In this document: piece by piece, positions 35,620 through 62,020 of the stretch
Layout of the letters: each line of letters begins with the position of its first letter
Position numbering within the stretch: the stretch's first letter is position 1
Source of the DNA: a virus
IMG/VR virus record: IMGVR_UViG_3300044712_000688
Coordinates: 1 to 64,000 of that record
Strand: one strand, 5' to 3'
DNA length: 64,000 nucleotides
Program-made: the position numbers and the translations under genes
The notes under the pieces: model-generated
Databases searched by the model: none
What the model was told of the DNA's origin: nothing
The model's input: the letters and a program-made list of their open reading frames with translations, nothing else

Positions 35620-36351
35620 GCTCTGACCCTACACCTCATATATAGATATGTCAACCCGCGGTGTGGGCCGCGCCGACGACGGGCTTAAAACTAGAGGGGG
35701 TGGCGGGGGCGGGAAGTCGTAGTAGGTATATGGGCAAAATAAGTTCGAACGAAGGATTCGTTGGAAGTAAAAAATAATAGACGCCGGTATTTAGATTCCT
35801 GTATCTAGATTCCTGTATCTGGATTCCTGAAATGCAATGCAGGAAATAAAGTTCTGGTATTTGACTTAAGTTGCTGCAACTTCGAATGAAGGTTCGTTGG
35901 AAGTTTACCTGGGAGGAACGTTACCGTTCCGTTATAAAAGAAAAAGATGGAAGGGTTAGGGTGAAAATGATAGACGCCGATATACGGATATAAGAAGCAG
36001 AGGCAGAGGAAAAGAAGGGTGAAGTGTAGCAGGGTGGGTTGGAGTATAGAAGGGTATGGGATTTAAGGCAAATGATAAACGCCGTTATTTATTTTGATAA
36101 TATCCGAAGGATCGGAGCTAAGGTAGGGTGGGTTATTAGCAAGAAGGGAGAAAAAAGAAGTGGAAAATTTTGCTAATGAAACTATGGTATCTATCTACTA
36201 TTAAATTATTAGTGATTATATTTCCTATTCACGCGCGAGAGATTTTTCCTAGCGCTGAATGTAAACCATAGTCGTTGATAGATTTATAGAAAAGTGATAG
36301 TATGTAATTGCTTGTAATTTGACATTTGACTTTTGAGATTGGAGAAAGGTT
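35620..36351. other. Non-coding divergence region; origin- or terminus-like
   Basis: No ORF; genes diverge; 14-bp tandem repeat, three spaced ATARACGCCG-n-TAT boxes, two inverted pairs of the TTCGTTnGAAGT motif, purine-skewed tract. Confidence 0.55.
35792..35829 (+). repeat. 14-bp tandem repeat TAGATTCCTGTATC x2.7
   Basis: Units at 35792, 35806 and 35820 (partial). Confidence 0.85.
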
Positions 36352-36810
36352 ATGAGTGATGTTTTTGACTTCCTAGGTGTAGACGAAAACGAAGCCGAGG
36401 AATATCTGAAAGAGATCGAGAACGGCAAACATATTCAGGATCGACGAGTTTGTATTTGTGGACATCCGATGGTGCGCCACAAGTTGGAAGTTGACCTGGG
36501 ATACTTTGTTTGCAGTCCAAACGCAGCTGGTTGTTTGTGTAGGACACCAAGGGCAGTGTTGGAGACCGGAGACTTGCGTAAGTTCTTGCGGAGTACCAAA
36601 GGAATGGGTTCGTCTCATGCTTTGACCCAGGGAATGTTGGCAGCTAAGAAGGCTGATGTTGAGATGAACTGGATTGAACAACCAAGCTGTGACAAGTGTG
36701 GCGCAAGTGGAGTTAAAGTTATTCCAGCACCAGTAAGTCCAAATGGTCAGATCTTGGACAAAGCAAGTCGTTTGAACGTCTTCTTGTGTCAAGACTGTCT
36801 TTTGTTGTAG
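36352..36810 (+). CDS. Cys-rich Zn-binding protein
   Basis: CICGH, CLC, CDKC, CQDC; GAGAAAGG RBS. Confidence 0.7.
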   Translation: MSDVFDFLGVDENEAEEYLKEIENGKHIQDRRVCICGHPMVRHKLEVDLGYFVCSPNAAGCLCRTPRAVLETGDLRKFLRSTKGMGSSHALTQGMLAAKKADVEMNWIEQPSCDKCGASGVKVIPAPVSPNGQILDKASRLNVFLCQDCLLL

Positions 36811-36811
36811 G

Positions 36812-37036
36812 ATGGGGTTTAAGATGATGAAAGAAGAAGCTGCCCGATATCTTGAAGAACACATTCAAGTATTGGTAGACTACGATCTGATTGATTCAGG
36901 AGTAGCGGAAACGCTAACTGAATATATCTGGAAAGCTATCGGGGACATTGATCCGGTGGTTGACGTTGACTCACTAAACCAGATTTGGAAAAAATTTGGA
37001 GAAGAGGAAGAAGGACTAGGCCATGGGTCTATTTGA
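36812..37036 (+). CDS. Hypothetical protein
   Basis: Operonic ORF. Confidence 0.55.
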   Translation: MGFKMMKEEAARYLEEHIQVLVDYDLIDSGVAETLTEYIWKAIGDIDPVVDVDSLNQIWKKFGEEEEGLGHGSI

Positions 37037-37349
37037 TTGGTTCCGCAAGGACAAGAAGAACACGCCAGCTGGTGTTGAGCGTGACGATAATGGTCGCTGG
37101 GTTGAGATTGAGGTAGTCCCAGCAACCGTATCTGGCAAGATTGATTCAATCCCAGAAATCAAGATTGAAGACAAGACTAAGCCAAAGCCAAAGCCTAAGC
37201 CGAAGAAGGTTGTTGCACCTACAACAAAGACTAAGCCAGTGGCTAAGTCGGCGGAGAAGAAGGAAGCAATCAAGAAGGATCTTGCTGACACTCCAGTTGC
37301 TAAGGCAAAGCCAAAGCCAAAGCCAAAGACCACTCCTAAAAAGAAGTAG
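37023..37349 (+). CDS. Lys/Pro-rich basic protein (histone H1-like tail)
   Basis: KPKPKPKPKK repeats. Confidence 0.65.
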   Translation: MGLFDWFRKDKKNTPAGVERDDNGRWVEIEVVPATVSGKIDSIPEIKIEDKTKPKPKPKPKKVVAPTTKTKPVAKSAEKKEAIKKDLADTPVAKAKPKPKPKTTPKKK

Positions 37350-37380
37350 GATGGATGTATAGGCGGGAGAGCCTGTACTC

Positions 37381-37420
37381 AAACGGGTCAGTTTTCGGAC
37401 TGGCCCGTTTTCTTTTTTGT
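37381..37420 (+). terminator. Intrinsic terminator
   Basis: AAACGGGTCAGT-TTTCG-GACTGGCCCGTTTT plus T tract. Confidence 0.8.
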
Positions 37421-37435
37421 TGATAGAATTTAAAC

Positions 37436-38449
37436 ATGCTACCTACTTGGGACAAACCAGAATTCAACTCAGAGTACTACGAAGACCAGAGATATCTTTC
37501 CTTGAATGAACGAGGGATGTTTGTTGCGAACGAGACTAGTCGGATGAATGGTCACGGTGGCAAAATCATTGATTTGATTTCGGACGATAGGAAAGTCGTC
37601 ATTCCGATTCAGACCGCGTACTTCCATGTACTTACAGAGATTCTTCCTATCATCGTCAGCGAGATCAACGATGCTGAGTTAGACGGGAAGACGGTCCACT
37701 TTGTTTTGGGGATTGATGCCGGACAAGAGATGTTCCTAAGTACTCACGTGGCCCAGGTCTACGAGCATGTAAATAATCAGATAGTTCGTCATGGACACAA
37801 GGTTTCTTCGGTGGCATTGAGCAGTAATGACGAGCTGCTTATTGACAACTTTGCTATCTACAGGCAGTGCAATAGCAACTTGGCCTTGATTAGGAATGTT
37901 TCGGCATTCGTACTTGATGGCGTTGTTGATTTATCCAAGGTGGAACCAACTAGGAAGGTTTACCTGAGCCGAAGCAAGACTCTATCGAACAGTGTGTTTA
38001 GGGCAACGGATGAAGAATATCTAACACTGAGCATCGATGAGATTCGAGAGAAGTACAAGTACAAGATAAGCGATCGTGTTGATGACGAAGCTTTGTTGGA
38101 AGAATACTTTTCTGGGATGGGCTTCGAGATTATCTATCCAGAAGATATCAAGTCGTTTGAAGATCAGCTCAAGTTGGTTTCAGAAATCAAGACGGTTGTT
38201 TCAATCACCAGTGCAGGTCTAACTTCGATGATGTTCATGAAGCCAGGCGGAGTGGTCATCGAGTTGTCTACCCCACTAGACATCCTCATGGGTGAGGACA
38301 AGCACTTCATTTCTATCCACCCTCACTATCTCTACCTCGCTCACGAGTTCAAGCACATCTATGTTTCGCTACCGCACAGTAGGTCGGCCACCGAAATTGT
38401 TGAACGGATTACAAGCGATTCAAAAATCAAGAACCTATTTTCCAACTAG
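37436..38449 (+). CDS. Glycosyltransferase family 61 (DUF563)
   Basis: YFH...EILP, KVYLSRS...RV, FEDQLKL, AGLTSMMFM...VIEL. Confidence 0.8.
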   Translation: MLPTWDKPEFNSEYYEDQRYLSLNERGMFVANETSRMNGHGGKIIDLISDDRKVVIPIQTAYFHVLTEILPIIVSEINDAELDGKTVHFVLGIDAGQEMFLSTHVAQVYEHVNNQIVRHGHKVSSVALSSNDELLIDNFAIYRQCNSNLALIRNVSAFVLDGVVDLSKVEPTRKVYLSRSKTLSNSVFRATDEEYLTLSIDEIREKYKYKISDRVDDEALLEEYFSGMGFEIIYPEDIKSFEDQLKLVSEIKTVVSITSAGLTSMMFMKPGGVVIELSTPLDILMGEDKHFISIHPHYLYLAHEFKHIYVSLPHSRSATEIVERITSDSKIKNLFSN

Positions 38450-40234: not shown

Positions 40235-40510
40235 ATGGACGAAGACAAACTGATAAAGATTAAGTTAGCTGCCGAGTATGCTCAGGTCAGTGAAGGAACA
40301 ATCTATAACTGGATTAGGCAAGGTTTTCTGAAGTTAGGCTTCCCTGGATACGTCCTTGAATCCGATCTTCGGCGAGCAATCATTTTCGTCAGTGACCACA
40401 AAAAAGAACAAGCCAAGTCGCGTAGTGAGAAGTTCAAGCGTGATGAGAACGGCAAGTTCCGACTTCTATCGGGTGACCTGAACGGTAAAACCGAGGGCGG
40501 ATTACTATAG
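40235..40510 (+). CDS. Excisionase-like HTH DNA-binding protein
   Basis: AAEYAQVSEGTIYNWIRQG. Confidence 0.75.
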   Translation: MDEDKLIKIKLAAEYAQVSEGTIYNWIRQGFLKLGFPGYVLESDLRRAIIFVSDHKKEQAKSRSEKFKRDENGKFRLLSGDLNGKTEGGLL

Positions 40511-40720
40511 CAGGGTGGTTAGATACCCCCAAAGATTTGTTAATAAAAGAGGGAAAAGGCAGCCGTCTCCCTCTCCACGCGCAAAATTTTCGTCCGACTT
40601 CGTCCGAAGATAAATCAACATTAGTGGCGTCGCGTAAAATTAATACAGCGGCGGCTCGTTTACAAGTCCTCTCCCCAGTTAAGCGGGCCGTCGCCCTAAC
40701 TTCGAACGAAAGTTCATGAG

Positions 40721-41662
40721 ATGTTTGATGACGAGATAGACAGCAAAAACTTAGCACCCGAATACATGATCGACGACCCGATCGACATGCGCGTTGACCT
40801 CAGCCAATACGGCATCGAGGAAGTGGACAAGGGCGTCTGCCAAGATACATTTGAGAACCGTGCTATTATTCGGCGAGCGCGTCTGATCTGGGACAGCGTT
40901 TATTCTATGAACGGAGTTCCAACGGGACTCATCCGCGTTCGTTCGAAGGAATCAATCGCCGAGAAGCGTCTACTATCTTTAGCCGAAAAGAAACCGATCC
41001 TTGCTGAACCGGACAACAAAAACTCCGACTTCATCACAGGCCTGGACCTCTTAGCGGAAACGGCGAGCGACTACTTGGTTCCTCCGTGGGTAGTTAATGC
41101 CACCCGTATGTACCTCAAGGAGCAAGAAGCCGGGGGACCTATGTCCCCGAAACGGAAACCGCTTGCCATGCCAGCTCGTTGCCGTCACATCAAGGATGAC
41201 GGTATACGTTGTATGCTTTGGTCTTCAGGACGTCCAAACGATGACGGCCTGTGCAGAGTACACCTCAGAAGCATCCAACATAAAACGACGGATGACATCG
41301 AACGAGCTCGTGCGAAGTTGATGCAGGCTGCACCGTATGCTGTAGACAAACTCGAAGAACTCATGGAGTATGCTGAGAGCGAGCCGGTAAGACTCAAAGC
41401 TGCAACGGAGATCCTAGATCGCGCTGGTGTAAGAGGCGGCGTGGAGATAGACACGAACGTCAACATTGATGTACGGCCAGCAGCTAGTGTCATTGCCGAG
41501 AGGTTGGACCGCCTAGCTCAAGGAGCGATCGCAACTGCTGCGAAGTTAGCGGATGCAGGTATTCACGTGTCTCCGGATAAAGAGATCATTGATGCTGATA
41601 TAGTCACGGATGAGAAAACGGAAGAGCGGCCTGCGCTTACTTCGGAGGAAGAAAAGAAATAA
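40721..41662 (+). CDS. Phage protein; C-terminal half resembles small-terminase-like proteins
   Basis: CRH...C...C..H finger then VRLKAATEILDRAG; functional call tentative. Confidence 0.45.
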   Translation: MFDDEIDSKNLAPEYMIDDPIDMRVDLSQYGIEEVDKGVCQDTFENRAIIRRARLIWDSVYSMNGVPTGLIRVRSKESIAEKRLLSLAEKKPILAEPDNKNSDFITGLDLLAETASDYLVPPWVVNATRMYLKEQEAGGPMSPKRKPLAMPARCRHIKDDGIRCMLWSSGRPNDDGLCRVHLRSIQHKTTDDIERARAKLMQAAPYAVDKLEELMEYAESEPVRLKAATEILDRAGVRGGVEIDTNVNIDVRPAASVIAERLDRLAQGAIATAAKLADAGIHVSPDKEIIDADIVTDEKTEERPALTSEEEKK

Positions 41663-41859
41663 TGAAAACTCAGGGAGAGATCCTCGAAGCGGCACGCGCT
41701 CTGTACGGGAACCTTAAAGCGGACATAGCAAATGCACATACACGGATCGAGCACATACGGATCACAACACTGACGCAGGAAGCTGCAAATCTTTTAACGG
41801 ATCTAGAAAATTTCTTTAGTGCGTCTACTGTGTTAGACTCAACGGGTGAGCAGATCTAA
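41662..41859 (+). CDS. Hypothetical protein
   Basis: TAATG coupling. Confidence 0.55.
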   Translation: MKTQGEILEAARALYGNLKADIANAHTRIEHIRITTLTQEAANLLTDLENFFSASTVLDSTGEQI

Positions 41860-42679
41860 TAAAGCTTTAATAAGCGCGTTTATTGCGACGGCGAGGAAGT
41901 ACAACGGGTATACCTCCGAGCTCCTCGGACGTAACATCTTTGGCCAGCGGGTTGGCTATGACGCTCAGCCTTGGGCGGGTGCCTTCGTTGATGTTGTTGC
42001 CCGCGAGTCCGGCCTGCATCTACCATCTTTCACTTATGTGCCCGCGGGACTAGCGGCCTGCGTACGTACGGGGAACATCTCACGAACACCTCGAGCCGGT
42101 GACATTGCGGTATATGCATTCTCCAGCAACACGGCGAGCGCGTTCTCTTCCCCCCACTGCGGGATCGTAACCGACGCACGTAACTTCAAACGAACCGGTG
42201 AGTTCCTCGCGATCGAAGGGGACACCGTCGGGACGGGCGTCTACCAAAACAAGAACGGCGTGCACCAACGGATCCGATCTTTAAACGAAGTTGTTTTGTT
42301 TTGCCGGCCGACGGATCCAGGGAGAAGCGGCCTGCATCTTCTGACGAAGCTTGTTCAGAAGTTAACGGGGGGAGCTCCGGATCGAGTCGAGCTTCAAACA
42401 ATTAACGAAGCGGCGAGCGCACCTAAGGAGATCCGCCTTTCTAAGTTAACGACCGCACGTACCAAGAACACGGACATCGAACGGGTCCAGCTAGCGCTTT
42501 CACTTGTAACGGATCTCAAGGGAGCTGACCGCGGGAAGTGGGATGCAGCTACAGCAAGTGCATTCGCTAACTTCCAACGGACGATCGGCCGAGTTGGATC
42601 CGACGCATCCGGTGCTCCAGATCTTCCAACGTTGCAACGTCTATCAAAAGAAACGGGCCTGTTCACAGTCTCCGAGTAG
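41846..42679 (+). CDS. CHAP-like domain (catalytic Cys apparently replaced) plus PG-binding-like domain
   Basis: QPWAGAFV, AGDIAVY, HCGIV, AIEGDT; GKWDAAT..A...FQR. Confidence 0.7.
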   Translation: MSRSNKALISAFIATARKYNGYTSELLGRNIFGQRVGYDAQPWAGAFVDVVARESGLHLPSFTYVPAGLAACVRTGNISRTPRAGDIAVYAFSSNTASAFSSPHCGIVTDARNFKRTGEFLAIEGDTVGTGVYQNKNGVHQRIRSLNEVVLFCRPTDPGRSGLHLLTKLVQKLTGGAPDRVELQTINEAASAPKEIRLSKLTTARTKNTDIERVQLALSLVTDLKGADRGKWDAATASAFANFQRTIGRVGSDASGAPDLPTLQRLSKETGLFTVSE

Positions 42680-44701: not shown

Positions 44702-44884
44702 ATGTACGGATTTGAATACCTGGTAAAACCTTCAGCGGCGAGCTCTAACTTCGAACGAGTGATCGTCTTTGCTGAAGATGTAACGGATGCTGAGAAGCAA
44801 CTTGCAGCTGTAACTTTCAACGGACACCCCTTGGTGAGCTGGACCCTGAAAGAAAGTAAGATGCTTCTTGCGACAAAGAATTAA
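44702..44884 (+). CDS. Hypothetical protein
   Basis: GAAAG RBS. Confidence 0.55.
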   Translation: MYGFEYLVKPSAASSNFERVIVFAEDVTDAEKQLAAVTFNGHPLVSWTLKESKMLLATKN

Positions 44885-45176
44885 AGACGGCCTGCGCCAG
44901 TACGTCGCGCAGTTCAAACGAGCCCCATGGTGGGTTAAAGTCATCGCGACTCTATGCATTGCTTATTTGGTTGTACCCATTGATCCGTTTGACATCATCT
45001 TTCCTTGGATGGCATTCAGTGATGACTTGTTCGTCGCGGGTCTGCTTCTTAAACTTCTTCACAAGTACGGTGCCATCCCAGGTGATGAGAAGCTAACGCC
45101 GGCGCAACTTCTAACGAAGATCTTGCCTCCCCGTAAGAAGAAGCTGCAGGATCGATCCGAATCATTCCGCGGGTAG
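44868..45176 (+). CDS. YkvA/DUF1232 membrane protein
   Basis: APWWVK...YLVVPID...FSDDL. Confidence 0.75.
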   Translation: MRQRIKDGLRQYVAQFKRAPWWVKVIATLCIAYLVVPIDPFDIIFPWMAFSDDLFVAGLLLKLLHKYGAIPGDEKLTPAQLLTKILPPRKKKLQDRSESFRG

Positions 45177-45869: not shown

Positions 45870-45914
45870 AAGACTGAAACTTCCTACGAATTCGTTCGTG
45901 GGAAGTTTTCTTTT
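45870..45914 (+). terminator. Intrinsic terminator built from an inverted pair of the polar 13-mer
   Basis: AAACTTCCTACGAA-TTCG-TTCGTGGGAAGTTTTCTTTT. Confidence 0.75.
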
Positions 45915-45993
45915 AAGCGGATCAATCGCCGGACCTGGCCCTAGCTAACTTCGAACGAATCACTATTTATTAACTGCAGTACGATTAGATTCC

Positions 45994-48020: not shown

Positions 48021-48161
48021 GTCGCAGCTTTGGGGATCGTACGCATTACTTCCCACGAAGAATTAACAAAGCTTTGCCCCTGATCGACCATGGCCCAGGG
48101 TTCACCCGGGCACTAGTAATTAGGGATAGAGCTGCGCCGGACTTGGGATCGAAACTGGCCG
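48021..48161. repeat. Polylinker-like linker
   Basis: 3 GATC, 3 AGCT, 2 CCGG, 2 GGCC, CCATGG, CGTACG and ACTAGT in about 140 bp. Confidence 0.85.
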
Positions 48162-50345: not shown

Positions 50346-50423
50346 GAAACTTCCAACGAAGATGTTTGTTTTGTCGCTGATGTGTGCTACTATTTACTTG
50401 TTGCCAAAAGAAGGGAAACGACA

Positions 50424-51961: not shown

Positions 51962-52036
51962 TTTGTATTTTCTCTGACTTAGTGTAAACTGGGGGCGTGC
52001 CTGAAAAAGAGTAGGGCGTAGGGAAAGGGAAGTCCA

Positions 52037-52510: not shown

Positions 52511-52748
52511 TCGTTTCCCTAAAAAGCAAGAACCCTCGCCTTCGGGCGGGGGTTCTTGTTTGGCGTGAGCGCAGCTGAACCGGATCAATGGATTACGCGC
52601 TCGCGGTTTGGGTGATCCAGGCTGGGGGCTACCGTCGGAACTTCCAACGAAAAAAATTTCTCGTATGAAGTTGCGTATTATCGGCGTATCCTGCTAAACT
52701 CTAAGGGTGGACGAAAAAGTTCACTTGGAAACTATCAAAGGGAAACAA

Positions 52749-53504: not shown

Positions 53505-53505
53505 A

Positions 53506-53709
53506 TTGAGCAAGCAGGTATTTTTTGTCATTGGCGTTGATTTAGATGATAAAGAGGTTTTTATCGCAGATGACACTTATTCAGCGCGGTTTAGTGAAGA
53601 TGAGCAAGTTTGGGATACAGACGCAAACGAGTGGATTGAAGATGACGATAGGAAATACTATCTCGATGCGTTAGACCTTTTGAACACGAAGCGTCTAGCA
53701 AAAGACTAG
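53506..53709 (+). CDS. Acidic hypothetical protein
   Basis: GAGG RBS, TTG start. Confidence 0.55.
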   Translation: MSKQVFFVIGVDLDDKEVFIADDTYSARFSEDEQVWDTDANEWIEDDDRKYYLDALDLLNTKRLAKD

Positions 53710-53822
53710 GGGCGCGGCGCTCGCCGGATCGCTGGAAAAAAACTTTCGTTGAAAGTTGCCAAAATGTCGGCATAGTATGCTAAAGTTCTATTAGTTGGGA
53801 AATGCCCAACAGTTAGGGAGAC

Positions 53823-54032
53823 ATGGAACCTCAAGTTCTAACTGACGCACTAGCGTCAATCGCAGATGCCAACTCGAAGTTGGATGCCATTCAACCACTA
53901 TCCGAGGCTGTTTCTAGCCTTATGGTCGTGGCTAACCTTTTGACTGACCTCAAGATGTTTGAGCAGGTCAATTCGGTTCTCGAAGTATCAAACTCACTTC
54001 TGGAAATCGTGAACTCACGCCTAAACGCTTAG
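53823..54032 (+). CDS. Hypothetical helical protein
   Basis: Own promoter, RBS and terminator. Confidence 0.65.
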   Translation: MEPQVLTDALASIADANSKLDAIQPLSEAVSSLMVVANLLTDLKMFEQVNSVLEVSNSLLEIVNSRLNA

Positions 54033-54233
54033 GCTAGGTTCGAGAGCGAACGCTCACCCTTCGGGGTGGGCGTTTTCTCTTTGTCCGGTGAGTGGAGAGC
54101 TGCAACTCAGATCGATCTAACCCTGGCCGGCCGATCCCGAGCTGGTGAAAAGTTTTCTTCGTTGGTTGTTGCGTTTTTTATCAGTTGATGGTAATTTTGT
54201 TGTGTAGCGAGTTGCTACGGAAAGTAGGGAAAA

Positions 54234-54464
54234 TTGAAGTTTTACATTCGCAGGGCAGTTGTTGGAATTATCTCAATTCCATTCGTGGCTGGTGCTTGGT
54301 GCTTTTTCTATTTGTTGTTGTTGCTGGCTGGTGGCGAGAGTAATCAAACCATTACCGAAACTTTTCAGAATGGTATTTTGATTGGAGTTGTTTTGGCATT
54401 GGTTTTCACTTTTGCCCCGCAGGTGAATGCTTTCGTGGAAAAGTTCACTGGCTCACCTGACTAA
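54234..54464 (+). CDS. Two-TM membrane protein
   Basis: Own promoter and terminator. Confidence 0.65.
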   Translation: MKFYIRRAVVGIISIPFVAGAWCFFYLLLLLAGGESNQTITETFQNGILIGVVLALVFTFAPQVNAFVEKFTGSPD

Positions 54465-54667
54465 CATTCGTTCGAAGTCAACCCCGCAGCTCTCGCAGCT
54501 CGTGGGGTTTTCTTCTGCCCTGGCTGGTTGATTGATCGCCGGAGATCCTGCAGCTGAAAAGTTTGAAGATCTTAGGGCTGAAAAAGTCTGGGCGAGTTGT
54601 TGCAAAATGTCAGGGGTCTATGCAATAATTAGGTGTGGTCAAGTTGACCACCTACGAAGGGAAACTA

Positions 54668-55192
54668 ATGGGAACTCGAAACCTAACCGCAGTAATCAAG
54701 AATGGCTCACCTGTAATCGCGCAGTATGGCCAATGGGATGGCTACCCCGAAGGTCAGGGAGCAACTGTCTATGAATTTATCAAGGGCGCTGGCGTTGCGA
54801 AACTTGAAGCGAACTTGGACAAGGCTTACTGGGCAGACGAAGCCGAACTCAAGGCGATTGACTTGAAGTATGCTGGCCCCGATGGCTGGATGACTATGGA
54901 ACAAGCCGAAGCATTTGGCAAGGATTATCCAAGTCTCTCGCGCAACACTTGTGCCGAAATCCTAAGCGTGGTTGCCAACGCAACCGAGCGTGTGCCATTG
55001 GTCAACGAAATGGAATTCTTACAGGACACTCTGTTTTGCGAGTGGGCGTATGTGCTTGACCTTGACGTTCACACTCTCAAGGTCTACGCTGGGTCAACCG
55101 AGCCTTGTGCCGAGTTTGACCTTTACAGTATGCCAAGCACTCTTGCCGAGTTTGTGAAGGGTTGCTACAGCGCGAGCGAGTCTCGCGTCTAG
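54668..55192 (+). CDS. Conserved phage protein (MGTR...Y.QWDGYP family)
   Basis: MGTRNL, QWDGYPEG, EWAYVLDLD. Confidence 0.75.
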   Translation: MGTRNLTAVIKNGSPVIAQYGQWDGYPEGQGATVYEFIKGAGVAKLEANLDKAYWADEAELKAIDLKYAGPDGWMTMEQAEAFGKDYPSLSRNTCAEILSVVANATERVPLVNEMEFLQDTLFCEWAYVLDLDVHTLKVYAGSTEPCAEFDLYSMPSTLAEFVKGCYSASESRV

Positions 55193-55423
55193 TCGCAACA
55201 AAAGAATGCCCCCGCAGAAATGCGGGGGTTTTCTTTTGTCTGGAGATCTTCGAACTAGCTGACCCGCCGGACCGCCTGGACTGCAGCTCGAGAGTGGAAA
55301 ATTTTCGTTACAAATCTGTTACCAAAAAAGTTGCCTCTGGACTTGACTTGCGAAATGTATGCCACTAGGCTTGGTATTACAAGCGAACACAAGGTTGGCT
55401 TGTTTTCTAGGGAAAGGACGAAA

Positions 55424-55723
55424 ATGGCTAAGGCTGTTGTCGTTGATGTTGTGGCACTGATTGACGAACTGATTGAGGTTCGTGAAGCAAAGGCTGAACT
55501 GTCTGCTCGTGAGAGCGTAATCCGCAAGTCGGTTCTTGGAGCGACTGGCAACACTGCTGTTCAGATTGCTGACGAGGCTGGCGTGATTATCGCTGAGGTC
55601 ACTGAGAGCGTTCGCCGTTCAGTCGGGGACTGGGACGAGTTCGAAGCGACCTATCCAGAGGCTTACGAGGCTCTGGTCAAGTTCACTGATGTGCTGACTC
55701 TCAACACTCTCAAAAAGAAGTAA
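55424..55723 (+). CDS. Small coiled-coil protein, paralog of 62149-62451
   Basis: Shared IAEVTESVRRSV.DW.EFEATYPEAYEALVKFTDVLTLNT. Confidence 0.75.
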   Translation: MAKAVVVDVVALIDELIEVREAKAELSARESVIRKSVLGATGNTAVQIADEAGVIIAEVTESVRRSVGDWDEFEATYPEAYEALVKFTDVLTLNTLKKK

Positions 55724-55972
55724 GTCGAGAAATCGCAAACCCCTCAGTCGAGAGACTGGGGGGTTTTGCTTTATCCCGAAATCTGGTCAATCCGCCGGAC
55801 CGCCTGGACTCTCGCCGAGATCGCTGTTCGTTCGTTCGTTCGAAGTTATGAAGCAGCTTAGTGGCAGCTCGTGGCAGCTCGTGAGCGTTACAAATTCGTT
55901 ATCAAAAAATACTTGACACGCTTTGGGTTGGGTAGTATATTTGAAGTTAGAAAGGGAGATAGGGGGTGTGAG

Positions 55973-56029
55973 ATGTGTGAGGACTTTCCTTGCTGTGGCC
56001 ATGACCATGGCGACTGCCCAAGACGGTAG
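55973..56029 (+). CDS. 18-aa Cys/His micropeptide (MCEDFPCCGHDHGDCPRR)
   Basis: Only ORF between promoter TTGACA-17-TATATT (55913) and terminator (about 56036-56068). Confidence 0.55.
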   Translation: MCEDFPCCGHDHGDCPRR

Positions 56030-56189
56030 TTGATAAAGAGCCCTGGCTTCGGCCAGGGTTTCTTTTTGCCCGGACCGGACCGGAGCTGATCTTGCAGCTT
56101 GTCAATCTGCCAGAAATTCCGTTATCTTTTTGTTATGGAAATTTGTACAAACTGACTTGCGCTAAGTGGCAAAGTGTGGTTTACTATTA

Positions 56190-56372
56190 CTAACAATTCA
56201 ATAGTGTTCTTAGTCGCAACATCTAATGGCTATGGATTACCAACTTGGGCTTGATACTAGTAAGAGTCGCTCGTTTGTAAATACGGTTTCAGATTTCCCT
56301 TCGACAAGAAATGAGAATTGGTCTCTGCAGAGACAGAACCCCCTAGGCGACGGTCTGGGGGGTTTTCTCATT
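56190..56372 (+). ncRNA. Candidate small RNA: unit with promoter and terminator but no RBS-led ORF
   Basis: TTGCGC at 56157 and TACTAT at 56182; terminator at about 56335-56372; shares ACTTGGGCTTGA...CGCTCG with the 58501 element. Confidence 0.5.
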
Positions 56373-56521
56373 TCTGGGGTGGTCGATCCGGCGTGATGCG
56401 TTTCGATCGGATTCAAAGCTGCAGCTCGCCAGGGCCGGATCGATCGACACGCAGCGAAAACATTCGTTGAAAGTTTTCCTTATGTATGGTAAGTTTGTAG
56501 TGGATAGAAAGGGGTAGCCAA

Positions 56522-56839
56522 ATGGCTCGAATTCCAAATTACAAGATTGAAGAAAAACTGAAGAACTTTGAAAGTTTTGAGAACTACAACCGAACCATTA
56601 CCGCGGTTCGTGACGGTTCTCGCTATTCGATTGTTCACTGGAACACACCGATTCTTGAGTATGACGTGGACAAGTCTGAGATTGTCATGTTTCGCAGTTA
56701 CCACATTTCTCAAACAACTAGCACGCTGGTCGGCCGTATCTTGCGCTCGCTACCGCCCGAAGTTGTGCTTGAGATGTCGCGCAAGTTTTCGGAGCGCCGA
56801 GAGCAGTATCGCATTTTGAAAATGGCTCGCTTGATTTGA
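56522..56839 (+). CDS. Hypothetical protein
   Basis: GAAAGGGG RBS; SQTTS motif; own terminator. Confidence 0.65.
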   Translation: MARIPNYKIEEKLKNFESFENYNRTITAVRDGSRYSIVHWNTPILEYDVDKSEIVMFRSYHISQTTSTLVGRILRSLPPEVVLEMSRKFSERREQYRILKMARLI

Positions 56840-57031
56840 AAGTGAGCAAACCGGAACCCCGCCCAAGTGGCGGGGTTTTGTTTTGATCGGATCTAGTGCC
56901 GAGAGCTCGCCCCGGGTTCGCAGCTGATCGATCTGAAGACACGAAAGAAAATGTTCGTTGGAAGTTGCGTGTTGTTTCGAAATGCGGTATCTTTTTATTA
57001 GGCGAAAACGCCTAAACGAAAGGGAAACGAA

Positions 57032-57349
57032 ATGGCAATGACCAAGAGAACAGCACACCTTTTGACTAGTGACTTTTGCCTAAAGGGTCACGACATTCGG
57101 GATAAAGAAGTTGCTCTCACTAGACACAATAGGCGCAACGGTGACGGCGAAATTGTTGGCGTGACGATTAGGTGTCGTGTCTGCTGGAACGATACCAGTA
57201 GGGAGCAGATGTATAAATTCAGGAAAACCGCTGGAACACCTGCTCTACAAATCAAGCGCTTACTAATCAAGCACCCAGAACTCGCACCTGCTCTACTGGA
57301 ACACGCTAAAAACCTGCTGTTGGCGCAGGCTATGAGCGTCAAGTCTTAG
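57032..57349 (+). CDS. Basic protein with C-x2-GH...C-x2-C finger
   Basis: CLKGH...CRVC. Confidence 0.65.
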   Translation: MAMTKRTAHLLTSDFCLKGHDIRDKEVALTRHNRRNGDGEIVGVTIRCRVCWNDTSREQMYKFRKTAGTPALQIKRLLIKHPELAPALLEHAKNLLLAQAMSVKS

Positions 57350-57396
57350 CAACTATCTCTGTAACAACTACCAACCAAAAACGAAAGGGAAACAAA

Positions 57397-57777
57397 ATGG
57401 CAAACTTTGATTTGATCGAGGAACGCGTTGAAGACGCAAAGGCAATTGCTTGGGACACTTGCCACAAGATTTATGTTCTTATGGATGATGAACAAGTCTC
57501 ACTTATGCGTAAGTATGAGTATGACCCGATTATCACCAAAGACGAAATGACCGCAACTGAAATGGCAGAGACTATCAAGAAGTGGTATGACGAAAGTTGT
57601 GGTTTGCGTTTCGTGAGCGCGGTCTCAACTATGCCCGAAGGTCAAGACGCTAACGAAGGTTTCGAAACCCTAATCGGGCAATTCGAAGAAGACGATTGTG
57701 AAGATTGTGGTGAGCGCGGTTGCGCTGGTGTCTGTAATGACTACGAAGACGAAGACGAAGAAGAAGAAGAAGACTAG
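57397..57777 (+). CDS. Acidic phage protein
   Basis: AIAWDTCHKIY, WYDESCGLRF, acidic tail. Confidence 0.7.
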   Translation: MANFDLIEERVEDAKAIAWDTCHKIYVLMDDEQVSLMRKYEYDPIITKDEMTATEMAETIKKWYDESCGLRFVSAVSTMPEGQDANEGFETLIGQFEEDDCEDCGERGCAGVCNDYEDEDEEEEED

Positions 57778-57934
57778 GGGGTGAGCTAAGCTTCGGCCGC
57801 GCTCGCGGATCGAAGTGGTCGCCCTGGTCGATCGATCGCCGGACACGAAAATAATCTTCGTTAGAAGTTGCGCTAACAACCAAAATACAGTATCTTTGTA
57901 GTAGGCAAATTGCCTAGAAAGTAGGGAAAGAAAA

Positions 57935-58144
57935 ATGAGTTTCGGAGAGCCGAAGTATCCAGATGTTCAGGTTCAGTTGGTCGGGGAAGACGGAAACGCT
58001 TTCGCGATTATGGGGCGTGTGGCTAGCGCACTAAAGAGCGCAGGTGTGTCTCAGTCTGAGATTGACGAATACTATGCCGAGAGCACAAGTGGCGATTATG
58101 ACCACTTGCTACGCACCGCAGTCAAATGGGTGGCGGTGGCATAA
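57935..58144 (+). CDS. Conserved small phage protein
   Basis: VQLVGEDGNAFAIMGRV...SGDYDHLL. Confidence 0.75.
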   Translation: MSFGEPKYPDVQVQLVGEDGNAFAIMGRVASALKSAGVSQSEIDEYYAESTSGDYDHLLRTAVKWVAVA

Positions 58145-58491
58145 TGGGAGACCGCTCGCTGATTCAGATTGAGAGCAAGTCTTTCAAGACCCCGATTACC
58201 CTTTATGGACACTGGTCGGGTGGAGATAACCTAATCGCTGTTCGCAATGTGCTGACTCGCACTGACCGAATCGGAGACCCAAATTACCTAACCGCGCAGC
58301 TGTTCTATGAGTTCGCGGTGGCTTTGGGTGGCTACGCCGGAGAGTTGTCTTTCGGGATTGACGCCTATGGTGCTAGCGAGAGCGATGTCTGGGTTGATAA
58401 CGACACAGTGGTTGTGAACGCCGACACTGGAGAGTATTCAGTCGGTGGAGAATTGTTTACCGAATTTGCGAAAGTCGCAGATAGCGTGTAA
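58144..58491 (+). CDS. MGDRS...LYGHW family protein (related to 54668-55192)
   Basis: Shared N-terminal pattern. Confidence 0.65.
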   Translation: MGDRSLIQIESKSFKTPITLYGHWSGGDNLIAVRNVLTRTDRIGDPNYLTAQLFYEFAVALGGYAGELSFGIDAYGASESDVWVDNDTVVVNADTGEYSVGGELFTEFAKVADSV

Positions 58492-58494
58492 ACT
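58466..58494 (+). promoter_or_regulatory. Promoter TTGCGA-17-TAAACT in the end of the upstream gene
   Basis: Matches the array promoter pattern; positioned to drive the 58501-58612 RNA. Confidence 0.65.
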
Positions 58495-58500
58495 GATAGA

Positions 58501-58612
58501 AGTCACTTGGGCTTGAGATTACTCGCTCGGGTGATTATGCGGAAGGAGTTATCCCCCTTTCACCTTCCGCAAAGAGAGCGGTAGCAATTCCCCCCAATTG
58601 CTACCGTTTTTC
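58501..58612 (+). ncRNA. Candidate sRNA: three hairpins, two with C5 loops (6C-RNA-like)
   Basis: TCACTTGGG/CTCGGGTGA; GCGGAAGG/CCTTCCGC around TATCCCCCTTTC; CGGTAGCAATT-CCCCC-AATTGCTACCG-T tract. Confidence 0.65.
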
Positions 58613-58617
58613 TTTTG

Positions 58618-58705
58618 TCTGGATTAGGGCCGCGCTCGCGGTGATCGATCAGAGCTGCACCCTGGCCGGACCGGAGCTTGCCGGGATCGAAACGCGCTCG
58701 CGGAA
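58618..58705. repeat. Polylinker-like linker
   Basis: 3 GATC, 2 AGCT, 3 CCGG, 2 GGCC and GAATTC in about 90 bp. Confidence 0.85.
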
Positions 58706-58774
58706 TTCGTTTGAAGTTGCTTGCTTTTCTTGTTGTTGTGGAGTAACCTGTTGGTATCCAAAGAAAGGGAAACA

Positions 58775-58915
58775 ATGGAAACCAAAGAGATTACCGAGTG
58801 CTACAAATGCCAAACCGAGATTGAAGCATTCGTTGGGCAAGTTCATCCGTTGTGTGATGAGTGTCAAGAAAGTTTTGACGATTGGTTCGCACAACAATTG
58901 CGGATGTTCAAGTAA
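58775..58915 (+). CDS. 46-aa zinc-ribbon-like protein
   Basis: CYKC...CDEC; consensus RBS. Confidence 0.6.
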   Translation: METKEITECYKCQTEIEAFVGQVHPLCDECQESFDDWFAQQLRMFK

Positions 58916-58992
58916 TCGCACGACACGACTAACCTAGTTGCGTGTTTGAGCAAACTAGGCTAATCTGGAATTACCTAGAAAGGGGAAACGAA

Positions 58993-59142
58993 ATGGCAAA
59001 GCAAGACACGATTTGGATTGGTTGCTGGGATTGTGGTAAGACTATTGAAGTGCCTTGGATTGGGGACTATTCAAGTCGCCAGATTTGTGCCGAGTGTAAA
59101 GCAGAAAGGGCTGAAAAATGGGCAGTAATCTCGAAGGGCTAA
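58993..59142 (+). CDS. 49-aa zinc-ribbon-like protein
   Basis: CWDC...CAEC; consensus RBS. Confidence 0.6.
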   Translation: MAKQDTIWIGCWDCGKTIEVPWIGDYSSRQICAECKAERAEKWAVISKG

Positions 59143-59168
59143 GTCGCTACAAAAGGCGCAAGGAAATT

Positions 59169-59342
59169 ATGAACGCACGAAAGACCGCACTAGAAGTCTT
59201 TGGGGCGCTCGCCGAGTATGACGCAAAGCCAGAAGTCTTTTCGATTTTCGATGGAATGGAATTCGAAGTCGTGAACGAAACTGGAATGGCGTTGGATGTT
59301 GAGTTCGTTGGTCGCACCATTACAATTAGGAATTGGAAATAA
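59169..59342 (+). CDS. Hypothetical protein
   Basis: AAGGA RBS. Confidence 0.55.
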   Translation: MNARKTALEVFGALAEYDAKPEVFSIFDGMEFEVVNETGMALDVEFVGRTITIRNWK

Positions 59343-59752
59343 TCGTGATTGGATTTCACCGTTTTATGGAAAAGTTTTGGCGAGTGATTAGCGCGATTGC
59401 CTTTCGCACTTTTCACACTACGCAGACGCTCGCGCATAAGTCTTATGTAAAGGGTGGTCGCCACGGTCGCCGTCGTCAGGAACGCAAACCCCTAACCGCA
59501 ATCTGGAAGTGGTGGCAGAATGTCAAAGCGCAATTCTGAGTTCGCGATTATTTGGCGTGGCCTTGCTGTTGGGCTAGGGTTTGTCTTTATTATGGGGTTC
59601 GCGATCGGTTATCGTGACGGGCTTACCCCCTGGTTTTTGCTTGGCGCAGCTACTGTTTGTTGGTGGCTATCAAGAAATTGATTTGACTTTTTAGGGAAAC
59701 GCAGTAAACTGATTCTGTTAGCAAATGCTGACACTTACGAAAGGGAAACAAA

Positions 59753-60124
59753 ATGGGAACAAAGGTATTCGCAATTCGTATCAATGAAGATGGCGGATTT
59801 GTTTTCGGGGACGAAACTCACGAAGTAATTTCACTTGACTTTCTACAGTCATTCGTTGGCGGTTGGGTTCAGGTTGTGCCACTATCTGGTTCACTCTCTG
59901 GCTTGTCAATGTGGCTAAACGAAGAAGGCAAGTTTTCAGACCTTCCGCTAAATGAGTTGGCAACCGCAATTTGGGAAGACTCATACGGCAAGACTGATTT
60001 TATCGTTGGCAATGTTCTAATCACTGGTGGCGAAGACTACGATGGTGAGATTGAAACTCTCACTAGTGAAGAAACTGATAAGATTATGGAAGTTGTTCTG
60101 AAAGCAATGGAACACTCTCACTAA
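59753..60124 (+). CDS. DUF3846-like protein
   Basis: LQSFVGGWVQ, NEEGK...N.LAT, DFIVGNVLITG. Confidence 0.8.
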   Translation: MGTKVFAIRINEDGGFVFGDETHEVISLDFLQSFVGGWVQVVPLSGSLSGLSMWLNEEGKFSDLPLNELATAIWEDSYGKTDFIVGNVLITGGEDYDGEIETLTSEETDKIMEVVLKAMEHSH

Positions 60125-60192
60125 GTTTCGTTTCCCTACGAAAAAAGACCTAGGCTAAGTCTCTAAACTGGCCTTTTATCACGCCTAGATTA

Positions 60193-60310
60193 TGGAAGCT
60201 CGCGCTCGCAGTTTTGATCAAAATTGTTCGCAGCTTGGCCCGGCCCTGGCCTAGTTGGTCGATCCGCGCTCGCCGGCCTTGGTCGATCCGCGCAGCTCGA
60301 CACGCTCGCA
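60193..60310. repeat. Polylinker-like linker
   Basis: Repeated GCTCGC, TTGGTCGATCCGCG x2, GCAGCT, GGCC and CCGG. Confidence 0.8.
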
Positions 60311-60396
60311 AACATTCGTTGGAAGTTGCTTGACTTTTACTCGCGCAGTGTGGCAAGATTGAGTTAGCCGAAAGGCACTAAGGAAAGGGAAACAAA

Positions 60397-60825
60397 ATGG
60401 AAACTGTAGTAATGGCATTCGAAACTTTCGAGATTACCAATTCTTGTATCTGTGAAGATTACGATGAAGACACCGAGATGTCGTCACCTAGCAACGAATG
60501 TTGGGGTTGCTATGACGATGAAGTTAGCAACTTGTGGTATGAAGTCATCAAGCCTTGGATGAACGCGAATGGCTACGATGAAGCCACTAACCTAATCATT
60601 CGCGGAAGTGGAATGACTTGGCAACGCTTGAGCGGATACGCTTACGCGACACCGAAGACGCTTGTTGAGAAGTTGTCTATCAACGGCGATTGGACACTAA
60701 GGTTCAAGATTACAGACGGCGCGAAGACACTCACCGCTGTTCGCTACTCTCACGATGAGCCAGTTGGCACTGGCGAGTTTACTTTCGAAGTTGCCGAAGA
60801 AGAAGACGAAGACGAATTGTTCTAG
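60397..60825 (+). CDS. Acidic phage protein
   Basis: Consensus RBS; YSHDEP motif. Confidence 0.7.
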   Translation: METVVMAFETFEITNSCICEDYDEDTEMSSPSNECWGCYDDEVSNLWYEVIKPWMNANGYDEATNLIIRGSGMTWQRLSGYAYATPKTLVEKLSINGDWTLRFKITDGAKTLTAVRYSHDEPVGTGEFTFEVAEEEDEDELF

Positions 60826-60936
60826 CGCGACACGCTCGCGACACGCAACCGCCCGATGTGGCGGTTGTTGTGTTTTTGGCAGATGTGTGGCATACTTTTG
60901 TTATCGGCAGAAAGCCGAAAAACGAAAGGGAAACAA

Positions 60937-61107
60937 ATGGCACTAGACGCACAGACCGCAAACACCGTTCGACACTTGCTAATGCGCTTGTCGGCAGAGA
61001 CAACCGTAGACGCTTGGTTGCTCGCAGAGAATGAAGAATTGGCAGAAATGTGGAAAGACGGCGCAACCTATGAGCAAATGCTCGAATGGGTAAACGAAAA
61101 CTTTTAG
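60937..61107 (+). CDS. Hypothetical protein
   Basis: Consensus RBS and terminator. Confidence 0.6.
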   Translation: MALDAQTANTVRHLLMRLSAETTVDAWLLAENEELAEMWKDGATYEQMLEWVNENF

Positions 61108-61152
61108 CCCGAAGAAATGGAAAGCCCTCGCGAAAGCGGGGGTTTTCTTTTT

Positions 61153-61283
61153 ACGCGCTCGCGGGTTTTTGATTCTGATCGATCACCGGCCAGGACCGCG
61201 CAGCTTGTTCGTTCGAAGTTGGCAGCTTGTTCGCCGGATACCGCCGGGCTTAGGCAGCTTGTTCGCCGGGGCAAGGCCGGAAG
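61153..61283. repeat. Polylinker-like linker
   Basis: GGCAGCTTGTTCGCCGG x2, GATCGATC, several CCGG. Confidence 0.8.
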
Positions 61284-61389
61284 CCGTTATCAATTTGTTA
61301 CAAAAATTATTTGGAAATTGACTTGTATTTTCGAAAAATAGAGTATGCTTATTACATAAGCCGAAAGGCAAAAACGAAAGGGAAACGAA

Positions 61390-61722
61390 ATGCTACTAAA
61401 CACTAAGACCGAGATTGCTTTCACTACTGGCGAGATTGACGGCAAGAAGTTCATCGGCGCAACCAAAGCAGACGCAAGCGCAGTTTTCACCGCTTGGCTA
61501 AACGACAACCTAGATTGGGTTTCGGCAGGGCGTGAGAACAACGCGGTTGAGATTGTTGGCGTATCTTATGACTTGGTTTCGTTCAACAATTCTGTTTATG
61601 TCGCTTGGTTGTGCAATGAATGCGAGAGCAACGATTGCGAGAGCGATGGCGAACCGCACGAAGAAGAGATTGGCAATTGCCGATTCGAAGATTTGGAATT
61701 GGTTAGCGAGTATCGGCGCTAA
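61390..61722 (+). CDS. Hypothetical protein, Cys-containing acidic C terminus
   Basis: Consensus RBS and terminator. Confidence 0.65.
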   Translation: MLLNTKTEIAFTTGEIDGKKFIGATKADASAVFTAWLNDNLDWVSAGRENNAVEIVGVSYDLVSFNNSVYVAWLCNECESNDCESDGEPHEEEIGNCRFEDLELVSEYRR

Positions 61723-61771
61723 CCCCAAACCCGAAAGCCCCTAGCAGAGATGCTAGGGGTTTCTTTTTGTG

Positions 61772-62020
61772 TGGATTGTTTCGCGCTCGCGGTCTCTAAT
61801 TTTGATCGAAATTGCTCGCAGCTTGTTGGTCGATCGACCGAAGTTTTTGGCAGCTCGCGCCGGGTTGTTCGCAGCTCATACCCCAAACCTTGCCGGGTTG
61901 TTCGTTAGAAGTTTGCCGGATTGCTCGCAGCTCATAGTCGGATTGCGCCGGGCCTTGCCGGGTTAGAAGCAGCTCGCGCTCGCCGGATTGGTTGGAAGTT
62001 GGTTAGCAGTCTGCCGGGGC
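61772..62020. repeat. Long polylinker-like linker
   Basis: Multiple GCAGCT, GCCGG, GCTCGC, GATC. Confidence 0.8.

Follow-up and report, generated by a model that had tools for sequence, protein, structure and literature searches.

Why should a short DNA word change strand in the middle of a long block of genes that all point the same way? The question is raised by an uncultured phage, IMG/VR record IMGVR_UViG_3300044712_000688 (136,298 bp; G000 in what follows). Its first 64 kb (positions 1-64,000, the window) carry many copies of the 13-mer AACTTCnAACGAA, mostly on the plus strand to the left of ssb, the single-stranded DNA-binding protein gene, and mostly on the minus strand to its right. 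The answer that we favour, with a confidence somewhat above even, is that one sequence-specific regulator of the ~29-kb early region uses AACTTCnAACGAA as a 13-bp operator half-site, that the copies of this word form two populations, and that the flip is the border between two genome compartments. An earlier reading of the window, made from its letters only (the sequence-only reading), had proposed an operator for a phage regulator that would also mark a directional process, such as replication, packaging or ejection, centred near ssb.

A strand-polarised 13-mer confined to the early region

AACTTCnAACGAA has 14 exact matches, versus 0.00 expected from 100 shuffles. At most one mismatch being tolerated, 27 matches are found in the whole record versus 0 expected, all of them located between 33,243 and 62,000. 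With up to two mismatches, the count rises to 60 versus 7.0 expected. A reversed control pattern has no match in the 136,298 bp. Compared with its reverse complement, the word agrees at no more than 4 of the 12 specified positions; it is asymmetric, without dyad symmetry. A literature search found none of its four commonest forms in any paper of the library searched.

The strand split is sharp. For copies with at most one mismatch, ten plus and one minus are counted at 36.0-52.65 kb, versus no plus and 11 minus at 52.66-62.0 kb (Fisher p=3.4e-5). When two mismatches are allowed, the numbers become 20 plus and 9 minus on the left versus 3 plus and 16 minus on the right (p=3.9e-4), which means that weak minus copies exist on the left as well. 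The flip near ssb that had been read from the letters is therefore real: the two strands hold opposite majorities on either side of it, orientations are not balanced and the frequency is far from background. Each coordinate proposed for the 13-mer was reproduced, with two mismatches at 48047 and one at 43012, 44747, 53745, 54467, 56463 and 61988, and the inverted pairs 35741/35757, 35878/35893 and 45878/45895 are all present. Some plus-strand copies do lie within coding sequences (42182, 42569, 43012 and 45106). Genes also keep one direction across the flip. Our own gene calls give one unbroken plus-strand block from 36.3 to 82.8 kb, with intrinsic terminators of the plus strand on both sides of the flip.

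The 13-mer is selectively conserved and forms convergent pairs

Orthologous sites were compared with those of the close relatives G001-G003 (81-96% nucleotide identity), giving 63 site-by-genome pairs. The 12 specified positions change at a rate of 7.9%, versus 11.7% for the flanks (p=0.0016) and 25% for the central N (p=7e-5). The 13-mer is under purifying selection at the DNA level, and its central base is free. A copy at 60315 illustrates this conservation, being identical at 13/13 positions in G001-G003 despite a flank identity of 60-73%.

The endolysin-like gene 41846-42679 shows what is being constrained. It contains six copies in the direction of its transcription (syn; 0-2 mismatches) and none in the opposite one (anti). 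Among the six are the plus-strand copies at 42182..42194 and at 42569..42581, the second with one mismatch and conserved at 13/13 positions in G002 and G003. The six copies are distributed over all three reading frames, so that the constraint bears on the nucleic acid rather than on the peptide. For the same reason, a peptide repeat was discarded as the source of the intragenic copies, these being found in frames 0, 1 and 2 of one gene.

Pairing was examined over 181 sites in 12 non-redundant relatives. A convergent partner, with the AACGAA ends facing each other 0-14 nt apart and at most three mismatches, accompanies 25% of the sites versus 2% by chance; divergent partners occur at chance level only. 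This excess indicates that the unit is a half-site, the full operator being a convergent pair of variable spacing. Convergent pairs occur in the divergent non-coding region of G000, G003, G004 and G005. In G000, this region is 730 bp long and holds two of them, AAGTTCGAACGAA-gga-TTCGTTGGAAGTA at 35741..35769 and AACTTCGAATGAA-gg-TTCGTTGGAAGTT at 35878..35905. The orthologous pair of the second one is exact in G003, G004 and G005.

The operator part of the earlier proposal is upheld by these data: the motif is selectively conserved with a free centre, it forms convergent pairs in the divergent region, and it lies in, on or just upstream of core promoters. Judged on such sequence features, the 13-mer is most likely a protein operator. 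A regulator, encoded either by the phage or by its host, would bind AACTTCnAACGAA half-sites across the early region. Full operators would be the convergent pairs AACTTCnAACGAA-N2-10-TTCGTTnGAAGTT, found in the divergent control region, at certain promoters and at certain terminators, and single half-sites would be scattered.

Orientation and position of the flip among relatives

An IMG/VR search with the inverted pair retrieved two distant genomes, G004 (153.7 kb, locus L081) and G005 (50 kb, locus L037), at 40-80% protein identity. Both carry the same word in the same layout, plus on the left and minus on the right. Among 69 loci anchored on ssb, 20 possess the 13-mer, corresponding to 11 non-redundant lineages. 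At many independent promoters, the copies overlap the -35, precede it or sit in the spacer between -35 and -10. Spacer copies, TTGACA-ACTTCnAACGAA...TAAGTT, are seen in G005, G004, L064, L065, L068 and L070, and copies 4-5 nt 5' of a -35 at 50348 and at position 24920 of G004r.

The polarity had been described as independent of transcription. This view is not borne out, as copies point with transcription across the family and the minus copies of the right arm are bound to a promoter cassette (see below). In G006 and G007, a large leftward gene contains 6 and 4 copies, respectively, along its own transcription, and rightward genes contain plus copies. More generally, open reading frames of at least 150 aa in 12 relatives harbour 52 syn versus 15 anti copies. 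Since the copies follow transcription, the contrast that had been drawn with mycobacteriophage stoperators, which orient with transcription, fails for the left arm.

Could the polarity still encode the direction of a process on DNA that runs toward or away from a point near ssb, such as a Ter-like fork trap, a translocase barrier or an origin signal, perhaps in addition to an operator role? The large-scale layout has this appearance. Two opposed blocks of ~11 sites turn their AACGAA ends toward the flip, with the same topology as in convergent pairs, and the right-arm spacer copies without a promoter link are still all on the minus strand. Moreover, the flip lies ~0.1-0.7 kb from ssb in four lineages related at only 40-80% protein identity (the G000 group, L034, G004 and G005), and ~5 kb from it in L036. 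However, the sites span only 29 kb of 136 kb rather than whole replichores, and the flip shifts: it closely precedes ssb in G000, closely follows the ssb stop codon in G004 and falls within the 3' end of the gene in G005. Minus arrays to the right of ssb are restricted to one clade (the G000 group, L034, G004 and G005, plus a single minus copy in L036). Distant relatives (L043, L044, L064-L068, L070 and L073-L079) have kept ssb and plus copies to its left without the opposed block, the right side having no copy or plus copies. The polarity of G006 and G007 changes instead where transcription diverges, along gene direction. Family scans of the region showed no replication gene other than ssb at the flip. 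Finally, the GC skew is positive throughout, with no change of sign near 53 kb. There is no support for a replication, packaging or ejection compass, and we consider a directional process centred near ssb to be very unlikely.

At 30001-34000, the skew is also uncoupled from gene direction, as it reaches +0.19 to +0.23 although the genes there are on the minus strand.

The right-arm promoter cassette

The flip point itself, at 52639..52672, is a fourth inverted pair located in the ssb promoter. A plus copy (52639) is followed after 8 nt by the minus copy CTCGTATGAAGTT (52660, two mismatches), the last TT of which opens the ssb -35 (TTGCGT-18-TAAACT). The ssb gene (PF00436; 52749..53138, plus strand) stands at the boundary between a conserved left arm of long operons, with few terminators, and a right arm of small genes with a fast turnover. 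The right arm has at least 10 strong plus-strand terminators, each small gene has a promoter of its own, and most genes of this arm are not common to G000, G004 and G005.

That right-hand copies often abut or overlap a -35 box was confirmed: ~8 of 13 overlap one (GAAG-TTGnnn-17/18-TAnnnT). Eight right-arm copies can be aligned in a common module of ~120 bp that carries, in this order, a GC-rich spacer and GACACG, a stretch rich in A, the 13-mer with the -35, a -10 that is often extended, a hairpin in the leader, the ribosome-binding site GAAAGGGAAAC and the ATG. In this cassette, the 13-mer occupies about -46 to -34, and its last TT opens the -35, which it overlaps (GAAG-TTGCGT-17-TATCTT and similar). 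The fullest illustration is at 56954..56966 (-), where GACACG, the A-rich stretch, the 13-mer, TTGCGT-17-TATCTT, the hairpin and GAAAGGGAAAC lead to the ATG at 57032. The copy at 57857..57869 (-) is fused to TTGCGC-17-TATCTT, and the one at 58706..58718 (-) to TTGCTT-17-TAACCT. With one mismatch, the copy at 53745..53757 (-) lies directly 5' of a promoter with a PafBC-like -26 element (ATGTCGGCA-N8-TAAAGT). Another, at 56463..56475 (-), is located 47 nt 5' of the ATG at 56522 and upstream of an extended -10 (TGGTAAGTT). A degenerate copy with two mismatches, 54158..54170 (-), is fused to TTGCGT-17-TAATTT, and the copy at 60315..60327 (-) is followed by GC-TTGACT with a poor -10 (CAAGAT/AAGATT, spacer 18/19).

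The other five right-arm copies are found in repetitive spacers 5' of consensus promoters, or after a stop codon. The latter is the case of 54467..54479 (-, one mismatch), placed right after the stop of gene 54234-54464 and before its terminator hairpin, with no promoter link. In a GC-rich spacer, the copy at 55835..55847 (-) lies ~65 nt 5' of the consensus promoter TTGACA-17-TATATT at 55913. A repetitive GC-rich spacer holds the copy at 61208..61220 (-), ~95 nt 5' of a TTGACT promoter. Two co-oriented minus copies (61901, exact; 61988, one mismatch) occupy 61901..62000, in a repetitive spacer 5' of the promoter at 62072 (TTGACA-17-TATGCT). L034 displays five co-oriented minus copies arrayed in the same kind of spacer. 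Between the gene units of 46281-63600, such spacers are dense in short GC-rich palindromes and words (GATCGATC, CCGG, GAGCTC, CAGCTG, CGCGCTCGC and TGGTCGATC), and some of these words are themselves strand-biased.

The same cassette may stand before different genes. The one at 57857, which precedes gene 57935 in G000, drives ssb in L034, with 18/20 nt identical after the site. Small variable genes are thus flanked by a repeated promoter module and a terminator, and one module precedes differing genes. This recalls the hyperplastic regions of T4-type phages, which carry repeated early-promoter/stem-loop modules (PeSLs). As there, the right arm is made of small, rapidly exchanged genes, each with a conserved promoter module and a terminator. 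The module described here differs in having an extra 13-bp word, which is also found outside promoters and reversed elsewhere, and it belongs to an unrelated phage group with an unrelated host.

One may then ask whether the copies are crossover points for the shuffling of gene cassettes, in the manner of integron attC sites or of T4-type modules, a uniform orientation within each arm serving to avoid inversions. The fast turnover of the right arm, with conserved cassettes beside unrelated small genes, and the occurrence of one cassette before different genes in different genomes would suit such a role. Against it, the genome has no tyrosine or serine recombinase recognisable with PF00589 or PF00239, homologous recombination needs more than 13 bp, inversions would be favoured rather than prevented by two opposed blocks, and intragenic and promoter-spacer copies do not suit a crossover role. 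We regard this explanation as the least probable of all those considered. The whole cassette (~100 bp) may mediate shuffling, which would not explain the 13-mer.

As parts of a repeated promoter cassette, the minus copies have an orientation that is fixed relative to transcription initiation. Would the 13-mer then simply be a fixed element of promoter architecture, recognised by the C-terminal domain of the alpha subunit or by sigma region 4 of the host RNA polymerase, or by a constitutive host factor? It would define a class of phage early promoters, and copies within genes would represent internal promoters or fossils. The fixed register of eight right-arm copies to the -35 and -10 argues in this direction, as do the finding of other cassette-specific words at the same place in related lineages (TATTCATTTTTTC, GACACG and the PafBC-type -26) and the lack of a phage-encoded binder among our findings. 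Other observations fit poorly. Both orientations are used, at varied distances (in the spacer, over the -35, 4-5 nt upstream and 50-95 nt upstream), and copies are also found within genes in three frames and 7-11 nt 5' of start codons. In addition, convergent pairs in a divergent region are typical of operators and not of UP elements, and the search for the pair in host-type genomes gave no match. A constitutive promoter element is accordingly rated as improbable, though clearly less so than a directional process.

Left-arm copies

We now turn to the plus copies upstream of ssb. The copy at 40698..40710 (+) lies 11 nt 5' of the ATG of gene 40721-41662, and its counterpart in G004 and G005 lies 7 nt 5' of the orthologous ATG. 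At 44747..44759 (+), a copy with one mismatch is kept in G001-G003. The copy at 45106..45118 (+), in the 3' end of gene 44868-45176, is found ~58 nt 5' of a TTGACA-17-TACGGT promoter and is identical at 13/13 positions in G001-G003. Its orthologues in G004 and G005 head tandem plus arrays. A further copy, 45947..45959 (+), precedes by 35 nt the ATG of gene 45994-46281. The weak copy at 48047..48059 (+; two mismatches, one in G003) is situated between the terminator 47982-48007 and gene 48245. Finally, the copy at 50348..50360 (+) ends 4-5 nt 5' of the -35 for gene 50424-50711 (promoter TTGTCGCTG-N8-TACTAT), ~6 bp further upstream than the minus copies in their cassettes. That the plus copies might represent a leftward version of the same promoter module was considered and rejected, as the minus strand has no consistent -35/-10 after them.

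The convergent pair at 45878..45907 deserves a separate mention. Downstream of gene 45619-45855, it folds into a hairpin of 15 bp that has a UUCG loop, and UUUUCUUUU comes next (-19.5 kcal/mol, z=-4.7). It is likely that this pair doubles as an intrinsic terminator, with its U-tract, for that gene. The pair is conserved in close relatives, according to the comparison of orthologous sites. The remaining inverted pairs fold weakly.

This hairpin suggests that the syn copies might act in RNA, AACUUCnAACGAA in early mRNA being the target of an RNA-binding protein, a nuclease or an antisense RNA, and the pairs being hairpins or terminators. The syn orientation in rightward as well as leftward genes is what an RNA signal requires. 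The common variants of the 13-mer are transitions (C6 to T, C10 to T, A12 or A13 to G) that fit G-U wobble pairing; transitions are, however, the commonest neutral change anyway. Many copies lie in promoter DNA that is not transcribed (in the -35/-10 spacer, upstream of the -35 or overlapping it). The entire right-arm set is antisense to the only supported direction of transcription and separated by terminators, several of which are bidirectional. Together with the weak folding of the other pairs, these points make a role in RNA very unlikely, slightly more so than a directional process.

Candidate binding proteins

Two helix-turn-helix (HTH) proteins encoded among the left-arm genes had been put forward as binders, and both are disfavoured. 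For the XRE-type protein (PF01381; 51641..51961, +), the recognition helix ALGYLSEVERGQKE is the same in L041, L051 and L052, which do not have the motif, and differs in the motif-bearing L064, L065 and L074. As for the HTH_17/excisionase-like protein (40235..40510, +), it is missing from the motif-bearing G006 (95 kb) and present in G008, which does not have the motif. Another protein, p168 (46409-46915), was considered as an autoregulated binder because its promoter carries the 13-mer in several lineages. It was dropped, since its AlphaFold model (predicted local distance difference test score 75) does not show a DNA-binding-like fold; Foldseek returned no hit for it at E<0.1 and a sequence search of the PDB was empty.

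A presence/absence screen of all 170 G000 proteins, retaining those found in G004 and G006 and not in G008, gave no convincing candidate. It left only a 101-aa protein (33604-33909), which DSL-LC01 shares although it does not have the motif, and a partial match with a protein of 857 aa. Pfam and PHROG scans of ~50 proteins from 30-63 kb yielded only the HTH_17 and XRE HTH proteins, and no two-domain repressor of the gp71 kind was recognised among them; this was not a direct search with the gp71 sequence. On the host side, where the search covered pairs only, the exact pair pattern has no match in 185,579 species genomes. A relaxed version of the pair retrieved only scattered non-actinobacterial metagenome-assembled genomes and none of the actinobacterial genomes. 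Among familiar sites, the LexA/SOS box, the DnaA box, the WhiA GACAC motif and extracytoplasmic function-type promoters were compared with the 13-mer and none fits; GACACG is a block of its own, further upstream in the cassette.

Two proposed populations of sites

How, then, could one regulator be served by sites of two polarities? In the scheme that we prefer, a half-site operator with two site populations, the first population would be older and widely conserved. Its members would lie in and between the genes of long operons, along transcription like stoperators, and some would lie in promoter spacers. The second would be specific to one clade and younger. It would have been built into the promoter cassette with the site reversed, and it would also occur in tandemly duplicated spacers 5' of strong promoters. 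The cassette would have spread along the array beginning at ssb, in which small genes, each with its own terminator, turn over fast. With two populations and the spread of a cassette, the flip appears as the border of two genome compartments and not as the signal of a bidirectional or converging process. Binding of the regulator may result in repression or in activation, and orientation may matter for a block of elongation.

Several points weigh against this scheme. To begin with, no binding protein could be assigned among the candidates examined, so that protein binding is something that we infer. Promoter geometry alone does not account for orientation, since 50348 is a plus copy in a cassette otherwise like those of the minus copies. 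The promoter of gene 46409 has a weak minus copy over its -10 in G000 versus a plus copy in the spacer in G004 and G005. The copies at 54467, 55835, 61208, 61901 and 61988 lie 50-95 nt from a promoter or are unrelated to one, yet all are minus. Co-oriented spacer arrays occur in both arms, each with the polarity of its own arm; tandem duplication may explain this arm-wise polarity of spacer copies. The large-scale layout, with AACGAA ends facing ssb, mirrors that within the pairs, which could be a coincidence or could be meaningful. Lastly, the compared genomes share ancestry, so that the counts are not independent events.

It may also be imagined that orientation is a functional code for one asymmetric regulator. 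Syn sites would act as stoperator-like roadblocks in long early operons. Anti sites, joined to the -35 around -40, would serve to switch promoters, by repression or by class-II-type activation. Alternatively, the opposed blocks facing ssb would form a polar trap for a machine tracking along DNA. Because the geometry, the promoter of gene 46409 and the polarity of the far spacers stay unexplained, we give such a functional role a low yet appreciable probability. If the orientation code were true, one protein could shut off one set of genes and control another differently. Were either the code or the polar trap true, this would be the first dispersed asymmetric operator network with a polarity flip that is not accompanied by a change of gene direction.

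Comparison with known operator networks

The closest known system is the operator/stoperator network of Cluster A mycobacteriophages, described for L5 gp71, Bxb1 gp69 and the TipsytheTRex repressor (PMC9283540, PMC6550527). In these phages, 20-30 asymmetric sites of 13-14 bp are dispersed through the genome and oriented along transcription. The repressor is monomeric, with an N-terminal HTH and a stoperator domain (gp71 family), and confers immunity in the temperate cycle. Once bound, it blocks elongation in an orientation-dependent manner (PMC9283540, PMC6550527). The likeness is considerable: an asymmetric 13-bp site, about 20-30 copies per genome (27 here at one mismatch or less), actinobacterial hosts, some copies being true promoter operators and most lying elsewhere, and, for the left arm and for the relatives with their leftward genes, an orientation mostly along transcription. 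The differences are equally clear. Here, 11 right-arm copies are anti-oriented to the genes, and they represent a second, clade-specific population fused to promoters, so that the polarity reverses while the genes keep their direction. Instead of being genome-wide, the sites occupy only a 29-kb early region (33.2-62.0 of 136.3 kb). Many lie within genes and not in the short gaps between them, and 25% belong to convergent pairs.

Neither is there a sign of an integrase-based temperate cycle: tyrosine and serine recombinases (PF00589 and PF00239) have no match in the 136-kb record, control genomes being positive. The phage may be virulent, without an integrase. In this case, the regulator would more probably serve as a temporal switch than confer immunity as a repressor.

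The C1 repressor of phage P1 is the second analogue, with 22 dispersed asymmetric 17-bp operators over the whole genome (PMC8546580). Shared features are the many dispersed asymmetric operators, single or paired, that overlap promoters of functionally unrelated operons. The sequence, the length of the site and the host differ; the P1 operators are genome-wide, and the parts of that work considered here state no arm-wise polarity. No C1 homologue was seen in G000, no search aimed at one having been made.

Dispersed asymmetric operator networks, known from few cultured phages (L5-type and P1 C1), are now extended to uncultured freshwater actinobacterial phages. They offer a natural experiment, in which one half-site occurs in two orientations and several promoter geometries, in a graded set of comparable relatives. 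Whether orientation decides between elongation block and control of initiation, and how an operator-bearing promoter cassette spreads through a hypervariable early array, thereby become testable questions. In practice, the motif and the cassette offer a means of locating promoters, operons and the early region when these otherwise unannotated phages are annotated.

Genome context and other repeats

The ends of the record carry a 127-bp repeat. The nearest deposited record is Actinomycetia phage DSL-LC01 (L009), a metagenome-assembled genome from a lake, with ~69% identity over part of the AAA-ATPase/CobT-like genes. G000 belongs to a large family of freshwater actinobacterial phages that is uncultured. 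Its rightward early genes are preceded by leftward genes at 28.1-35.6 kb, the last of which is 34606-35619, and the 730-bp divergent region separates the two sets. The families recognised in the motif region comprise a glycosyltransferase, a HAD/nucleotidyl-transferase, HTH_17, the endolysin-like protein, a 2-oxoglutarate oxygenase, AAA, VWA/CobT-like, XRE-HTH and SSB, and downstream of them extends the array of small genes without family matches. The first rightward gene, 36352-36810, encodes a Cys-rich protein of 152 aa (CxCGH, CxC, CxxC, CxxC) that is kept in G002-G005 and shows 36% identity even in DSL-LC01; to judge by this cysteine pattern, it may be a zinc-ribbon early protein. At 53298-53504, a 68-aa open reading frame gives a weak, sub-threshold match to HicA toxins (E=5.7e-5, 23.6 bits versus a cut-off of 27).

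The divergent region contains other repeats. Within 35770-36100, AGATTCCTGTATCT recurs, with three tandem copies at 35793-35830, and three (A)ATAGACGCCG(G/A)TAT-like words are found at about 35776, 35969 and 36074. The AGATTCCTGTATCT and ATAGACGCCG-type repeats could be an origin or a second set of operators.

Relatives possess dispersed words of their own. DSL-LC01 is devoid of the 13-mer, and the paper describing it is silent on motifs. Between its positions 15187 and 35890, ~17 copies of GATTCTAAAGATGTTATAATAGAATC, an inverted repeat GATTCTA-N12-TAGAATC around a TATAAT -10, are followed by the ribosome-binding site ACGACGAAAGGACAA, all co-oriented with the genes. In L090, 19 copies of TTACACGGAAAAA are distributed on both sides of ssb, in both orientations and with several close inverted pairs. 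This word is probably another operator, one that fills the same role in the genome. L060, L041, L051, L052, L037 and L081 show ~15-24 co-oriented copies of G-TATTC(A/G)TTTTTT(C/A) per 20 kb, each one after the T-tract of a terminator and before the (G)ACACG block and the promoter; one or two far-left copies are inverted in L060, L051 and L052. Within the same promoter cassette, this word forms an upstream block that is specific to certain lineages.

A last element concerns PafBC, an actinobacterial activator of the DNA-damage response whose "-26 element" has the consensus tGTCgg(N10)tA(N3)T (PMC8635444). Early promoter cassettes of relatives (L051:10891-19327; L041, L052, L060, L073, L090 and L081) contain TGTC(G/A)G-N10-TAnnnT, which corresponds to this consensus. 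L051 has 9 such copies versus 0.3 expected, all on the gene strand and to the right of ssb, and other lineages have 5-8. From this resemblance, the early genes of these phages may be driven via the PafBC sigma-adaptation pathway of the host. G000 has only 2 exact copies, the sites in the window being 53270-53291, 53765-53786 and about 50370-50392, and the 13-mer cassette of its clade seems to have replaced most PafBC-type elements.

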